From the IMG/VR virus record IMGVR_UViG_2778261245_000001, positions 1 to 38,365 of that record: 38,365 bases of DNA; one strand, 5' to 3'. How positions within the stretch are numbered: position 1 is the stretch's first letter; each line of letters begins with the position of its first letter. This document shows positions 403 to 5,949 of this stretch, one piece after another. The position numbers and the translations under genes are program-made. The notes under the pieces were generated by a model. That model did not search any database and was not told the DNA's origin. It worked only from the letters and a program-made list of their open reading frames with translations. This stretch comes from a virus. Its lineage: Duplodnaviria > Heunggongvirae > Uroviricota > Caudoviricetes.

Positions 403-1533
403 TCATATTGTTAAAGTTACCCAATTTTTTCCGCGGAGATCGTTATAACGATCAGTTTGTTGCTGGGTTTTATGTCCCAGCAATTTCTGAGTATCTATTC
501 CCTGTTCTTTGTATAGCCTTTCTGACAATGAACGTTGCTCATGAAAGGTTGCTGGGGTTCCTTCACCCCAATCAATTTCAGCCAGATCCCTTGCTTTGCT
601 AAAATTCATAGTCAGAGTATTAGCTTTTACTTGTGCCCCACGTTCTGCCTGTGAAGTTGATCTGAAAAAATGTACTAAGTATGGACTATCTACATAGTCA
701 CGGCAGCGAGCTACAACATCGCGCAGGCTCCAGTTGATTACATTCAAACGAAGAGAAAGAGGAATGGCTATTTTGCTGCCGGTTTTTTCCTGTTCGATAT
801 GCAGATGATCATCCCAGATATCGCTGAATTTCATTTTGGATATATCTCCCAAACGTTGGCCAGTAACCAGCGCTAACAGCATGGCATTTCCCATGTAACG
901 ATGAGTGGAGTCTGCGATATCAAAAATTTTTTGCCATTCTTCCAGGCTGAGGCGTTGACGGGTGATTTTCCTTCTGGGTTGCTTCGTCGCAAGAGCAGGG
1001 TTATACCCTGGTGGAACTTCGCCATAATGCTGTGCTTCCTTAAACACATCGATTAATACAGACCTTACGACTTGGGCCATTCTAGGCTGTCCAGCTGTAA
1101 TATACTCATCAAGCAATTGTGCTATATCTCTGACATCAACGGATGAGATCAACTTCATTCCTGCTCGTTCTCTGAGCAAGGATACTGGTTTGGCTTTTTG
1201 CTTATAGGTATTGAGTCTTATATCACCACTTTTGAGCCTATCATCCTGGATCGCTTGATAGCGATCTAACCAGGTTGACGTTGTGATCGCTTTTCCTTTG
1301 CAGGTTGCGATCCTGTCACTGATAGCCAGAATCTGTCGGGTTCTTTGTTCAGCCAGGCGTGTATTGGCTTCAGTGGCAATAGCGATGGCTTCAGCTTCGT
1401 TAGTTCCCAACGCATGAAATTTCCCTGTTACTGGATGCTTATACCGCCAATAGACTTTATTTACCTTCCTACTATAAAGCGGATATAAGTTAGGTACTGA
1501 AACATTATTCTTACGCGGTCTGGCTGCCATCAC
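403..1533 (-). CDS. int: Lambda-family tyrosine integrase
   Basis: 376 aa; C-terminal catalytic region ending FHEQRSLSERLY...LLGHK...YNDLRG closely parallels the lambda Int C-terminus (FHELRSLSARLY...LLGHK...YRDDRG); followed by excisionase as in lambda. Confidence 0.9.
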   Translation of the reverse strand: MMAARPRKNNVSVPNLYPLYSRKVNKVYWRYKHPVTGKFHALGTNEAEAIAIATEANTRLAEQRTRQILAISDRIATCKGKAITTSTWLDRYQAIQDDRLKSGDIRLNTYKQKAKPVSLLRERAGMKLISSVDVRDIAQLLDEYITAGQPRMAQVVRSVLIDVFKEAQHYGEVPPGYNPALATKQPRRKITRQRLSLEEWQKIFDIADSTHRYMGNAMLLALVTGQRLGDISKMKFSDIWDDHLHIEQEKTGSKIAIPLSLRLNVINWSLRDVVARCRDYVDSPYLVHFFRSTSQAERGAQVKANTLTMNFSKARDLAEIDWGEGTPATFHEQRSLSERLYKEQGIDTQKLLGHKTQQQTDRYNDLRGKNWVTLTI

Positions 1534-1756
1534 TCAAGATCCGTTGCAAAAGTAATGAGTCATTTTTCTTGATTACTGGTGTTACCAACTCCCCAACTAA
1601 CTCAGCGTCCTCACGCACTCGCCATAACCGACCTTGTTTCATGGCCGGTGGGCAAAATAAATTCTGCTTAGCATAACGACGCAATGTGGACACACTTGGA
1701 GGATTACTTCTGTATTTTTCAGAGGCCCATTCTTCAAGAGTTAACATTTGAAGCAT
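1511..1756 (-). CDS. xis: Excisionase (Xis-like DNA-binding protein)
   Basis: 81 aa ORF immediately upstream of and overlapping int start by 23 nt; small basic winged-helix-like sequence; position as lambda xis. Confidence 0.7.
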   Translation of the reverse strand: MLQMLTLEEWASEKYRSNPPSVSTLRRYAKQNLFCPPAMKQGRLWRVREDAELVGELVTPVIKKNDSLLLQRILSDGSQTA

Positions 1757-1918
1757 ATGCGATCACCTTGTTACTTCACTAACTGTTCAGTCTCTGCATA
1801 TCGACCCTGCAAGGTCGGTTAGTTTCTCCACAAAACAGAGAAGAGCACCTGTGGCCACAACTATCAGGATGGATCGGGTTATGACCCCGTCATCCGGGGA
1901 TACTCTTCTCTGTTTTGT

Positions 1919-1965
1919 AAAAAGGGCGGTACCAGCCGGAAGCAAGGGTACAAGCTGGTACCGCC
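1919..1965 (-). terminator. Rho-independent terminator for leftward transcription, upstream of xis
   Basis: Perfect 12-bp GC-rich stem GGCGGTACCAGC / GCTGGTACCGCC (1925-1936 / 1954-1965), 17-nt loop, followed on the minus strand by CTTTTT. Confidence 0.55.
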
Positions 1966-2249
1966 AAGACTACACACAGCATAAAGTTGTGGTGCCGGGT
2001 GCCTCCCGGTGCCTGGCGAAGGTTGCACACCAGGCGGGTGGGTATCCACAGAAGGTCGACTGTCAGCCTCAACCTTAACCCGCGTGCGCTGAGCCGCATT
2101 CACCACAACGCTAAGGATTCTCTCTGGTTGAAAATACTTAGCTGTTATGTGCCTGCTTTTAGCCACATCAGGCGAGGTGGACCTGGTTATTCCCCAACAA
2201 CAAGGATTCGGTTAATCTGGTTATCCCCAACAACGCAAAAGGAAAAGAA

Positions 2250-2684
2250 ATGTCCGGTAATATCTATACGCTGTACAAATCCCACTGTGAAAATGTTGGA
2301 AAGTATCGGGGCATTGAAATCAGTGGGGTAGTGTCATCAGTCGAAATAAGCAAAGTTGAATCAAGGGCAACATTACTAACTCTTCTGGACCTTGTGTTAC
2401 ATGAGCACCGGAAGAAATTCGGCACTCCCTATAATCAGTTGAATGGGAAAAAGGCTCTGGTTCACCTTATTCTGATGAAGCATCACTGGATGCCAAAACA
2501 GATTAATGAGATGAAATTTGATGAACTTCTTCTTTCAATTCAGGATGAACTCACACTTGATAAAATAAGCGTAACCGCCCAGAAATTTTTAGATTATCGA
2601 GACTGGAGATCACAAATTCATCACTTTGATGATTTTGACGAAAATGAATGGGATCCTAATTTGTCTGCACAATATCTAAAGTAA
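2250..2684 (+). CDS. Hypothetical protein, 144 aa (accessory gene between xis and cI)
   Basis: ORF with AGGA-type RBS about 8 nt upstream of ATG; preceded by two direct repeats; no family recognised. Confidence 0.55.
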   Translation: MSGNIYTLYKSHCENVGKYRGIEISGVVSSVEISKVESRATLLTLLDLVLHEHRKKFGTPYNQLNGKKALVHLILMKHHWMPKQINEMKFDELLLSIQDELTLDKISVTAQKFLDYRDWRSQIHHFDDFDENEWDPNLSAQYLK

Positions 2685-2862
2685 CATCCTGTGATAAAAC
2701 CGTGATTTCCTGATCCAGTTTTTTTAAGGAGTCTATTGTTTCCTGTCGATAAGACAGCACTTCACGAAGCTGGTTTATAGCTGCCAGCTTCTTTGTCATC
2801 CACTCATAAATTTCCTCATCTGTGTAGTCAGGCGCGACGATTTTGGGTTCTGTTTTGTGCAT
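2656..2862 (-). CDS. Hypothetical small protein, 68 aa (convergent with 2250-2684, 3-prime ends overlap)
   Basis: ATG at 2862 preceded by a strong GAGGAGG Shine-Dalgarno about 7 nt upstream; ORF track lists a TTG-extended version to 2877. Confidence 0.5.
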   Translation of the reverse strand: MHKTEPKIVAPDYTDEEIYEWMTKKLAAINQLREVLSYRQETIDSLKKLDQEITVLSQDVTLDIVQTN

Positions 2863-2921
2863 TTCACACCTCCTCAAGTTATCAGTTACTTGTTGATGGG
2901 GACCAGATTGTTAAAGAGCTA

Positions 2922-2947
2922 AGCGTCCTGTAGGGCGCTTTTTTGTT
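2922..2947 (+). terminator. Rho-independent terminator, plus strand
   Basis: Stem AGCGTCC / GGGCGCT (one G-U pair), loop TGTA, followed by TTTTTTGTTG. Confidence 0.45.
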
Positions 2948-3061
2948 GCTAACGAATCATCCTGGACTTCATATGCCCCAGGCGGCTACTTCGTGGGCGT
3001 CCTGCCTGTTTGTTGTTTTTCTTGGGTACATTATGTATCTCAAAGGTACATTGTCAAGTAT

Positions 3062-3083
3062 AAAAAAACCTGCCGAAGCAGGT
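3062..3083 (-). terminator. Rho-independent terminator immediately downstream of the CI repressor gene
   Basis: Hairpin ACCTGC-CGAA-GCAGGT (3068-3083) preceded on plus strand by A7, i.e. T7 after the hairpin on the minus strand; 14 nt after the cI stop. Confidence 0.7.
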
Positions 3084-3096
3084 TCATAAACATTGA

Positions 3097-3771
3097 TTAG
3101 GCTTTGATTTTGTATCTTCTTGGTTTTCCTGAGAAAATCACAGTACCAATTATAGAGCAATTACCGTTGATCTTAATGTAAGGCTCAGGCCAGTTTGGGT
3201 TTAACGCTTTGAGATAACGCTGTGTCCCATCTTCTATCAACCTTTTGAAGGTGGTTTCACCTGTATCGTGCATCAATGCAATAACGTCGTCACCGTGGCA
3301 GGCAGGTACTTCAGGATCGACAAAAATCATGTCTCCCGGGCGGTACTCATCAATCATTGAATCACCTATCACCCGCAAGATATAAGTCATTTCCCCACAG
3401 GGTACAGGGCAGGGATACGTTTCTGCTGTGCTCAAATCAACCTCAGAATATCCAACTTCTTTCCATGCTCCGGCCTGTACCCATGATATGACAGGGACTA
3501 ATGTGATTTGTTTATTAGTGATTGAAACATCAGGTTTTTTTGTGATGTTCGTTGTCTGGTGTTCTTGATCGAGCCATCCGACAGGCAGGTCGAAACATTT
3601 TTCGATGTGTCGTGCCATGCTGTCACCGATATTTTTAGTAGCACCATCTCCCATAAACCTGCTGGTTTGGGTTGGCTCGCGATCAATCATAGTGGCAAAG
3701 GAAGAATTCCCGCCAACACCATCTCTCAGTTTTCTGGCGTTAGACCGCCGGATGTCATGGATTGTTTTCAT
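3097..3771 (-). CDS. CI-type prophage repressor (N-terminal HTH plus C-terminal S24 LexA-like peptidase domain)
   Basis: 224 aa; C-terminal ...YILRVIGDSMIDEYRPGDMIFVDP... is the S24 autocleavage domain signature; divergent from a cro-like gene; same length as e14 CohE. Confidence 0.9.
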   Translation of the reverse strand: MKTIHDIRRSNARKLRDGVGGNSSFATMIDREPTQTSRFMGDGATKNIGDSMARHIEKCFDLPVGWLDQEHQTTNITKKPDVSITNKQITLVPVISWVQAGAWKEVGYSEVDLSTAETYPCPVPCGEMTYILRVIGDSMIDEYRPGDMIFVDPEVPACHGDDVIALMHDTGETTFKRLIEDGTQRYLKALNPNWPEPYIKINGNCSIIGTVIFSGKPRRYKIKA

Positions 3772-3786
3772 AACGAAATTAAAACC

Positions 3787-3807
3787 CTTGTACCGTTAAG
3801 GTACAAG
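3787..3807. promoter_or_regulatory. Candidate operator: 21-bp palindrome CTTGTACC-GTTAA-GGTACAAG in the cI-cro divergent intergenic region
   Basis: Perfect 8-bp inverted arms; an isolated GGTACA half-site recurs at about 3850-3855 next to the cro RBS; putative -35 TTGAAG (3812-3817) and -10 TAATAT (3834-3839) for cro lie between. Confidence 0.45.
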
Positions 3808-3861
3808 TATCTTGAAGGTTCATTTTAATCATGTAATATGTATATTGGAGGTACATATTGT

Positions 3862-4062
3862 ATGAAAGCGTATTGGGACTCTTTAACCAAAGAACAGCAG
3901 GGCGAGTTGGCCGGAAAAGTTGGCTCAACACCTGGCTACTTACGGCTGGTTTTCAATGGCTATAAAAAAGCCAGTTTTGTGCTGGCTAAAAAACTTGAGC
4001 AATGCACGTCAGGTGCAATTACGAAATCTGACTTAAGACCGGATATCTATCCGAAAGATTAG
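3862..4062 (+). CDS. Cro-like small HTH regulator
   Basis: 66 aa from ATG 3862 with GGAGG RBS at about 3847-3851; divergent from cI; ORF track lists a longer version from 3838. Confidence 0.7.
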   Translation: MKAYWDSLTKEQQGELAGKVGSTPGYLRLVFNGYKKASFVLAKKLEQCTSGAITKSDLRPDIYPKD

Positions 4063-5007: not shown

Positions 5008-5949
5008 ATGAGCACTAAATTAACCGGCTATGTATGGGATGGTTGCGCTGCGTCAGGCATGAAATTATCCAGCGTGGCAATTATGGCCCGCCTGGCTGAT
5101 TTCAGTAATGACGAAGGTGTGTGCTGGCCATCAATTGAAACCATTGCCCGTCAGATTGGCGCGGGGATGAGTACCGTCAGAACGGCTATCGCACGGCTGG
5201 AAGCAGAAGGCTGGTTAACGCGTAAGGCGCGTCGCCAGGGTAACCGCAATGCGTCGAATGTTTATCAGCTTAACGTTGCGAAGCTTCAGGCAGCGGCATT
5301 TTCTCAACTGTCAGATTCTGACCCGTCAAAATCTGACGCATCAAAATCTGACCCGTCAAAATTTGATGCGTCGAAATCTGGCAAAAAAGCGGGTTTTCAC
5401 CCGTCAGAATCTGGCGGGGATCCGTCAGTAAAATCAAAACATGATCCGTCAGATAAAAAACCTTCTCGTCCGGACGCTTCGCAACCGGACACGCAGACGG
5501 CTGAACAGGATTTTTTAACTCGCCATCCTGATGCGGTTGTATTCAGCCCTAAAAAGCGCCAGTGGGGGACGCAGGATGATTTGACCTGCGCACAGTGGCT
5601 CTGGAAAAAAATCATCGCCCTGTACGAGCAGGCTGCCGAATGTGACGGCGAGGTGGTTCGTCCCAAAGAACCGAACTGGACAGCCTGGGCAAACGAAATT
5701 CGCCTGATGTGTGTACAGGATGGGCGTACTCACAAACAAATCTGCGAGATGTACAGCCGCGTCAGCCGCGATCCGTTCTGGTGCCGTAACGTGCTCAGCC
5801 CGTCGAAGCTGCGGGAAAAATGGGATGAGCTTTCCCTGCGCTTATCGCCGTCCGTCAGCACGTACACCGAAAAACGCGAGGACCCGTACTTCAAAGCCAG
5901 TTACGACAACGTGGACTACAGCCAGATCCCGGCAGGATTCAGAGGGTGA
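5008..5949 (+). CDS. Phage replication initiator (lambda O-like: N-terminal HTH, internal iteron-encoded repeat region, C-terminal domain)
   Basis: 313 aa; N-terminal winged-helix-like segment; central low-complexity DPSKSD repeats encoded by DNA iterons; position after cro/cII-like genes. Confidence 0.7.
   Translation: MSTKLTGYVWDGCAASGMKLSSVAIMARLADFSNDEGVCWPSIETIARQIGAGMSTVRTAIARLEAEGWLTRKARRQGNRNASNVYQLNVAKLQAAAFSQLSDSDPSKSDASKSDPSKFDASKSGKKAGFHPSESGGDPSVKSKHDPSDKKPSRPDASQPDTQTAEQDFLTRHPDAVVFSPKKRQWGTQDDLTCAQWLWKKIIALYEQAAECDGEVVRPKEPNWTAWANEIRLMCVQDGRTHKQICEMYSRVSRDPFWCRNVLSPSKLREKWDELSLRLSPSVSTYTEKREDPYFKASYDNVDYSQIPAGFRG
5311..5455. repeat. Iteron array (candidate replication origin) inside the replication-initiator gene
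   Basis: At least 7 tandem copies of a 12-15 bp unit resembling CCGTCA(A/G)AATCTGA, e.g. gacccgtcaaaatctgacgcatcaaaatctgacccgtcaaaatttgatgcgtcgaaatctgg. Confidence 0.55.

Follow-up and report, generated by a model that had tools for sequence, protein, structure and literature searches.

The DNA analyzed here, called the window throughout, is the whole 38,365-nucleotide (nt) IMG/VR virus record IMGVR_UViG_2778261245_000001 (Caudoviricetes). It is an e14/SfV-type lambdoid prophage of Escherichia coli, integrated beside icd. The closest chromosome region is 99.8% identical to the window, and the e14 region of E. coli K-12 is 93% identical. On the minus strand, the excisionase gene xis (1511-1756; phrog_629, E = 4e-31) is followed on its 3' side by int (403-1533), and RefSeq annotates xisE/intE in a near-identical genome. 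Upstream of xis lies a non-coding region of 494 nt, which has a match in 2267 of 5426 complete E. coli genomes. A segment of this region with two inverted repeats is very probably a conserved leader RNA of the minus strand with a functional terminator, and xis is the first gene past this leader in the window.

The two repeats were described in a sequence-only reading of the DNA, with exact coordinates. ACAAAACAGAGAAGAG (1830-1845) is complementary to CTCTTCTCTGTTTTGT (1903-1918) at 16 of 16 positions, with a spacer of 57 nt as reported. GGCGGTACCAGC (1925-1936) is complementary to 1954-1965 at 12 of 12 positions, with a loop of 17 nt. No other perfect inverted repeat in the whole window with a loop of up to 120 nt is as long as the 16-bp (base pair) repeat. 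It is far beyond chance: its pattern had no match in 100 dinucleotide shuffles, and 200 first-order Markov simulations gave no repeat of 16 bp or longer (the maximum was 15 bp, seen once). The minus strand of 1797-1924 folds with -58.5 kcal/mol (z = -8.2), and the plus-strand fold has z = -4.4.

The terminator and the STnc100-like RNA

The hairpin at 1925-1965 on the minus strand has 12 perfect pairs (folding predicts 13). C and UUUUU follow it on the minus strand only; the plus strand has no T-run. The U-run occupies 1923-1919, and the expected 3' end is 1919. The stretch 1919-1968 folds with -25.7 kcal/mol (z = -5.6). The hairpin had been called a textbook minus-strand terminator; it is an intrinsic terminator of that strand, but the word textbook is slightly generous for a loop of 17 nt and a tail of C plus five U. 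It is absent from the listing of a consensus terminator scan, which covers loops of 3-8 nt, against 17 nt here. In ST64B, Kp4866-6, Enterobacter and others, the stem sequence is changed and the pairing is kept. The hairpin thus co-varies across genera.

Termination at this site agrees with Term-seq of E. coli K-12, where a 3' end is mapped at 1201195(-) (PMC7815308, supplementary file 1). The row string reads GTCTTGGCGGTACCAGTTTTTTCCTTAGTCCTTTCTGGTACCGCCCTTTTT up to the end and ACAAAACAGA after it, which places the end on the last U of CCCUUUUU, corresponding to window position 1919. The position of the 3'-end base within the Term-seq strings was calibrated on the sgrS row. The transcript end anticipated from the sequence is therefore found on the last U of the homologous run of K-12 e14. 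Two more abundant 3' ends are at 1201257(-) and 1201423(-), corresponding to ~1981 and ~2150 of the window (PMC7815308). The former, with ...ACUUUA before the end and UGCUGUGUGU after it, is 62 nt before the terminator end, and the latter is ~12 nt upstream of the start of the RNA described below. These two ends indicate that leftward transcription crosses the region even in K-12 without induction, and they suggest processing of a longer leftward transcript.

The Rfam model STnc100 (RF02076) matches 1916-2139 on the minus strand with 45.2 bits (E = 4.3e-8) over the full model (1-206). This is under the gathering score of 47, and the window has no STnc100 match at the gathering threshold. The body of the STnc100-like RNA (1966-2139, minus strand), which contains the 3' end at 1201257(-), has a closing helix, GUUGUGGUG / CACCACAAC, and a 22-nt core, CACCGGGAGGCACCCGGCACCA. 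The core is identical to that of the canonical STnc100 of Stx2a_1447, and the closing helix is also common to both. In the Rfam alignment, the 12-bp hairpin is the 3' terminator of the STnc100-like RNA itself. Matches are weaker in K-12 e14 (29.2 bits) and ST64B (35.1 bits). STnc100 is a prophage-borne small RNA of Salmonella and E. coli (bioRxiv 10.64898/2026.05.13.724894; PMC5331693). The likeness consists of the full-model alignment, the 22-nt core, the closing helix, the intrinsic terminator at the end and the prophage-borne location, whereas canonical copies are in the late region and the leader copy is early-left and below the gathering threshold.

The canonical copy in Stx2a_1447 (153.8 bits; L162, 10684-10899) is located 75 nt 3' of stx2B. 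No junction RNA of the kind described in the next section follows it. Most relatives of the leader have no Rfam-level STnc100, and 14 other loci bearing the junction RNA have no gathering-level match. The Stx2a_1447 copy and these 14 loci rule out that the junction RNA is a general 3' extension of STnc100.

In ST64B (L005) and in L012, L017, L020, L024, L034, L038 and others, the terminator loop contains AGGAGG, 7-9 nt, ATG or GTG, and TTC TG.... The AGGAGG and the start codon would be a ribosome-binding site and a start inside the terminator hairpin, so translation could open the terminator; the loop sequences are suggestive of this in these variants. The frame after the in-loop start codon is not conserved.

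Fold and distribution of the three-way-junction RNA

The long repeat had been proposed to be either a protein-binding palindrome or part of a small RNA. The latter comes closest, as the repeat forms helix P1 of a conserved three-way-junction RNA of the minus strand. The 5' strand of P1 (20 nt, 1899-1918) contains the right arm, and its 3' strand (20 nt, 1830-1849) contains the left arm. P1 consists of the 16 bp of the repeat and four inner pairs, UAUC:GGUG. The five U of the terminator pair with GGAGA at 1829-1825 in the read-through RNA, both in RNAalifold and in single-sequence folds, and with this U-run:GGAGA extension P1 reaches 25 contiguous pairs. RNAalifold recovers P1 on its own, including the extension.

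The interior of the junction (1850-1898, minus strand) was assigned from the family consensus of alignments A3 and A4. P2 has five pairs, 1897-1893 with 1869-1865, with compensatory changes at three positions. P3 pairs 1889-1886 with 1878-1875 and closes a 7-nt loop, GUCAUAA (1885-1879), in which CAU is at 1883-1881; family-wide, P3 has 3-4 G-C pairs and a 7-nt loop. The P4 region (1864-1851) is a hypervariable hairpin in the family and is poorly formed in the e14-type copy. RNAalifold proposed another interior (28-30/36-38, 39-42/59-62), which has less support because the A at column 33 is uncompensated at column 40. P2/P3 is preferred on account of the compensatory changes in P2 and of the variants in L069 and L049, which extend P2. 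Downstream of P1, a linker, GGAGAAAC (1822-1829, minus strand), is near-invariant in A3 and A4. It is followed by hairpin P5, CGACCU-UGCA-GGGUCG (1802-1817, minus strand; -8.5 kcal/mol), for which 37 distinct stems are observed among homologues with a constant loop, (U/G)GCA(G).

Pairing in the family fold was evaluated in two samples. The first was obtained by scanning one genome per species with a pattern derived from the interior, and it gave 25 true homologues from ~13 genera of Enterobacterales. Among its 26 sequences, 94.1% of the cells are paired, and double changes are seen at 9 pairs in 46 cells (0 of 500 shuffles; slid controls 36-52%). The second sample was obtained by scanning viral contigs with the 3' strand of P1 only and is unbiased for the interior; it added 120 loci. 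Its 83 distinct sequences show 93.7% paired cells and double changes at 12 pairs in 142 cells (0 of 500 shuffles; slid controls 38-53%). P1 itself is 93-94% paired, with compensatory changes at five positions (A-U/C-G, G-C/C-G and A-U/G-C) and a conserved U.G pair that is kept in 78 of the 83 sequences. G.U cells number 50 and A.C cells 16. Because the G.U pairs would be mismatches in DNA, and A.C mismatches on the other strand, the helix is an RNA of the minus strand, and the protein-binding palindrome is rejected.

In a BLAST search, 1797-1967 stood out as independently conserved, at ~88%, in SfV, SfII, SfIV, cdtI, mEp460 and Stx2a/2c phages, with more distant conservation in Salmonella ST64B, Citrobacter phiNP and Klebsiella Kp4866-6. 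Conservation of the repeats in related prophages, which the sequence-only reading had set as a check, is therefore observed. In total, the junction RNA is found in more than 120 prophage or viral loci of Escherichia, Shigella, Salmonella, Citrobacter, Klebsiella, Enterobacter, Erwinia and others; besides E. coli, prophages of at least a dozen further enterobacterial genera carry it. With a covariance model trained on the family, every locus has exactly one copy, and the window and the remainder of Stx2a_1447 contain no further one. The terminator hairpin and T-run abut P1 in ~95 of 100 homologues. Two exceptions, L018 and L130, have no upstream terminator. They keep the linker and carry a sigma-70-like promoter, TTGATT-18-TATAGT, directly 5' of P1. 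A promoter in the place of the terminator indicates that the junction RNA can stand alone as a 5' leader.

In the annotated phages SfV, ST64B, phiNP, cdtI and Stx2a_1447, the element occupies the interval from cI to the first early-left gene. Different genes follow the leader: xis in the e14 type, and sb37/orf32-like, RdgC-like or other genes elsewhere. Such variation indicates that the element serves the operon and not a single gene. The terminator had been thought to insulate int-xis. Shielding from leftward transcription is plausible, but in the majority of relatives the unit stands before the first early-left gene and not before int-xis; hence it is a leader of the operon and not a device of int-xis.

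Rfam searches (E <=10 over 1400-3200, and the gathering threshold over the whole window) showed nothing that covers 1797-1924, and a literature search for the sequence of the element gave no match. The junction RNA is an undescribed motif of a familiar general kind, the structured phage operon leader.

Some of these loci also contain IsrK and C4 antisense RNAs in tandem 5' of an antirepressor gene. These are at L003 5715-5903, L004 5569-5757 and L090 4401-4589, in Stx2a_1447, cdtI and another viral contig, where a P1-type immI module is present alongside the junction RNA.

Leftward transcription and the proposed processing

A pL-like promoter, TTGACA-16-CATAAT, lies at 3030-3057 on the minus strand (TTGACA at 3057-3052, CATAAT at 3035-3030; 11 of 12 matches), ~1.1 kb upstream of the leader, and would be the source of the leftward transcript. 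A 17-bp operator, TGTATCTCAAAGGTACA, overlaps it (region 3014-3057). The gene for a LexA-family repressor is at 3097-3771 (minus strand) and cro at 3838-4062 (plus strand), and three similar operators are found between cI and cro (3789-3855). The operators at the promoter and in the cI-cro gap look like the set of binding sites of the repressor. Between promoter and leader, a ymfJ-like gene (2656-2877) is on the minus strand and an ECs1072-family gene (2250-2684) on the plus strand. In K-12, intE, xisE, ymfH and ymfJ belong to one i-modulon (PMC12132413).

A perfect rrn-type boxA, GCTCTTTAACAA, is located at 2919-2908 (minus strand), after a hairpin at 2940-2921 in the pL leader, and may give Nus-factor-dependent read-through. 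Of 161 fetched loci, 12 contain the exact 12-mer, in each case 5' of the junction RNA and on its strand. With a relaxed 8-mer there is no enrichment (23 loci on the same strand and 19 on the opposite strand). With so few loci and no enrichment of the 8-mer, boxA was rejected as a general companion of the element.

Three other features of the window were observed. A direct repeat, CTGGTTAT(T/C)CCCAACAAC, is present in two copies at 2176-2231, just 5' of the ECs1072-family gene; it is possibly a regulator binding site for this oppositely oriented accessory gene. Positions 1-336 contain a fragment of an IS481-family transposase adjoining int, which is frameshifted in the near-identical genome; the int side of the prophage is thus disrupted at its end. 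A cluster of inverted repeats at 5312-5413 (20 nt, 85% complementary, and 18 nt, 89% complementary) probably represents origin iterons; it falls within the O-like replication gene (5008-5949), where the encoded peptide is repetitive.

The repressor-controlled early-left operon very probably begins with a composite minus-strand leader of three parts: the STnc100-like RNA (2139-1966), ending at the terminator (stem 1965-1925, U-run 1923-1919); the three-way-junction RNA (1924-1825), with P1 as its closing helix; and the hairpin with the UGCA(G) loop (1817-1802), followed by xis-int. For its function, the following model is proposed. Most leftward transcripts would stop at the terminator, by which the upstream small RNA is made and xis-int, or the early-left genes in complete phages, are kept silent. 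Read-through transcripts made after induction would fold P1 into a duplex of at least 20 bp including the U-run (20-25 bp). Predicted cleavage of P1 by RNase III would detach the upstream RNA and set the 5' end of the downstream message, and hence its stability and translation. It would also free the junction core as a separate RNA of ~100 nt.

A duplex of 20 bp or more is a classic RNase III substrate. The corresponding length, about two helical turns of near-perfect double-stranded RNA, is present in P1, which has 20 conserved pairs and 25 in the fold of the window. Known single-strand RNase III sites carry a central mismatch. A central mismatch in P1 (C.C and similar) is seen in most non-E. 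coli copies (74/83), and its resemblance to such sites is counted for RNase III suitability.

Two RNase III hairpins are familiar in the pL operon of lambda: the processing site of the N leader, and sib/tI, which acts in retroregulation of int. The element resembles both in having a long duplex in the leftward transcript beside a terminator, complete only in the read-through RNA. A link to int/xis expression is also common to the element and the lambda sites, and with sib/tI it further shares the inclusion of the terminator U-run in the helix. It differs in that it is 5' of xis and not 3' of int, encloses a conserved junction and has no sequence similarity to the lambda sites, and in that its cleavage is only predicted.

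Several observations weigh against this model. A transcriptome-wide study of RNase III in E. coli (PMC6212723) makes no mention of e14. The Term-seq 3' end could reflect exonuclease trimming to the hairpin and not termination. The junction interior of the e14 type is degenerate, with poor pairing in P4, and the minimum-energy fold of the window has another pairing in place of P3/P4. The sequence of P1 is more conserved than pairing alone demands. RNase III needs no conserved junction core, so the best-conserved bases, GAC...CUCAU...AAUCC, are left unexplained. The model also gives no account of how RNA polymerase passes the terminator after induction. Considering these points, the RNase III step is tentative and somewhat less probable than its absence. 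Leader, terminator and processing taken together as one blended estimate are evenly balanced.

Other explanations and implications

One alternative is that the segment is only a terminator or insulator, with the long repeat as an incidental hairpin or a simple 5' stabilizer. The terminator is functional in K-12 (Term-seq, PMC7815308), as this explanation expects. The promoter directly 5' of P1 in L018 and L130 is also in line with it. 5'-terminal stem-loops stabilize mRNA, which also counts in its favor. An incidental hairpin, however, would not keep a junction with near-invariant unpaired bases and compensatory changes across at least 13 genera, and we consider this explanation unlikely.

A second alternative addresses the conserved loop. 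The family consensus at the tip of the P2-P3 arm, CGGGCUCAUAACCC, is identical to 14 contiguous bases (28-41) of E. coli tRNA-fMet, the sequence of which was confirmed as the 4-copy tRNA-Met. The matched stretch comprises three G-C pairs and the anticodon loop CUCAUAA with CAU. In the sample unbiased for the interior, ~94% of the sequences have CUCAU, and 80-83 of the 83 have the three G-C pairs. The junction RNA might therefore mimic the initiator tRNA, as a decoy for a factor that recognizes its anticodon arm, for example a VapC-type nuclease, methionyl-tRNA synthetase (MetRS), or the P site of the 30S subunit with initiation factor 3 (IF3), and this could coexist with processing. VapC of Shigella and Salmonella cleaves tRNA-fMet in the anticodon loop.

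The resemblance is limited in several respects. The loop is GUCAUAA in the window and UUAAUAA in K-12 e14. The L041-type lineage (5 of 100) has GUG-CCCUAAC-CAC, without CAU, and loop positions 37-38 vary (AA, UA, UC). Conservation is just as high in the internal-loop bases that flank the hairpin, so this hairpin may be just one piece of a larger tertiary motif. ARAGORN found 0 tRNA genes in the window, and the Rfam tRNA model found none at E <=10 in 1400-3200; in the lack of a cloverleaf by either, membership in the tRNA class was rejected. By inspection, the CUCAUAA loop did not co-vary with a pseudoknot partner or with the sequence around the start codon of the downstream gene. The 14-base identity is a likeness to the anticodon arm of tRNA-fMet and to mRNA operators that mimic tRNA arms (e.g., thrS). 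The element has no equivalents of the acceptor, the T-arm or the D-arm, and the resemblance is missing in the minority lineage. The mimicry explanation is accordingly given a small chance. It is rather improbable, in particular, that the excised junction RNA is an anticodon-arm mimic made early by the phage from the leftward operon, which would soak up a host or plasmid factor targeting tRNA-fMet or dock in the 30S P site and so control initiation.

An antisense function like that of c4 is improbable as well. In this case, the excised junction would act in trans or in cis, and its loops would base-pair with a site in its own operon, for instance the first gene's ribosome-binding site. The architecture of P1/P7 c4 (RF01695) is alike: the Rfam consensus structure has a long closing stem and two hairpins, and c4 is a phage RNA embedded in an operon leader. 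The CUCAU loop also complements AUGAG, which many sb37-like first genes have at their start. This complementarity spans only 4-6 nt and is trivial (CAU:AUG), and where the first gene is xis, orf32 or RdgC-like it is lacking. Changes at loop positions 37-38 are not matched by changes in the bases 5' of the start codon. The stem of the element is much longer than that of c4, no a/b target repeats were identified, and the operon is different. The Rfam C4 model gives no match on the element at E <=10, whereas true C4 elsewhere in related phages scores 68-84 bits. C4 membership was rejected for this absence of a model match.

It is very unlikely that the element is a cis-acting processive antiterminator like put of HK022, in which the junction would bind RNA polymerase and make it resist downstream early-left terminators. 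HK022 put consists of two stem-loops in ~70 nt, located before terminators at both pL and pR (PMC9378689). It is comparable as a structured cis RNA with which an early operon begins, in a lambdoid phage that has no lambda N (PMC9378689). The element heads the early operon in phages that have no recognizable N gene between cI and the element. It also has adjacent stem-loops, P2/P3 and P4, with strongly conserved unpaired bases, and the variable downstream gene suggests a role at the operon level. Its position differs, since the junction lies after and not before the linked terminator in ~95 of 100 loci, and it is a single copy: neither the window nor any other locus has a second one near pR. 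The put RNA has no 20-bp closing helix (PMC9378689), and the family covariance model (R1, filters off) reached only 6.4 bits (E = 3.3) as its best score in the put interval of HK022. Put membership was rejected, as there is neither similarity in sequence and structure nor agreement in position and copy number.

The reading of the segment as protein-coding or as a palindrome at the DNA level is hardly tenable. It could appeal to YmfH, annotated in K-12 by RefSeq, and to ORFs (open reading frames) over 1790-2075 that match phrog_3651 (plus strand, E = 6e-44) and phrog_33599 (minus strand, E = 2e-11), or to a site for Xis or integration host factor (IHF). The best frame on either strand, however, is open through the element in only 68 of 108 distinct sequences (63%), element lengths are 143, 144, 145, 147 and so on and differ by 1, 2 or 4 nt, and the ymfH ORF is a frameshifted pseudogene in the closest genome. 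NCBIfam has no match over the segment, and the substitutions are compensatory and not codon-periodic. The G.U pairs exclude a DNA palindrome, and most copies are far from int, xis and attP. The ORFs in the segment had already been suspected to be spurious, which the lack of a frame open throughout, the insert lengths that are not multiples of three and the frameshift in ymfH bear out. The best explanation of phrog_3651 and phrog_33599 is that each family collects spurious ORF calls made on top of a conserved RNA.

The preferred reading, a conserved leader RNA with a functional terminator, affects annotation. At present, annotation places hypothetical ORFs on the segment (ymfH and the two PHROG families), and recognition as RNA removes these spurious genes. 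Probably, ymfH of K-12, a homologue of window positions 1793-2104 (L001), is not a gene. Over-expression of 'ymfH' is reported to trigger RcaT, the toxin of retron-Sen2 (preprint 10.1101/2020.06.22.160242). If ymfH is not a gene, the trigger of RcaT may be RNA of the junction region, that is, the leader RNA rather than YmfH.

If the mimicry of tRNA-fMet is true, the element would be an RNA-based anti-defense, for example against VapC-type toxins acting as abortive infection, or a device of translation control, and such a device would be carried by a large share of enterobacterial prophages. The leader raises the questions of how temperate phages without N use terminator read-through, RNA processing and a tRNA-fMet-like hairpin. 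The junction RNA is a new conserved RNA motif at the entry into the early-left operon, and in e14-type elements at the entry into xis-int and hence into excision.

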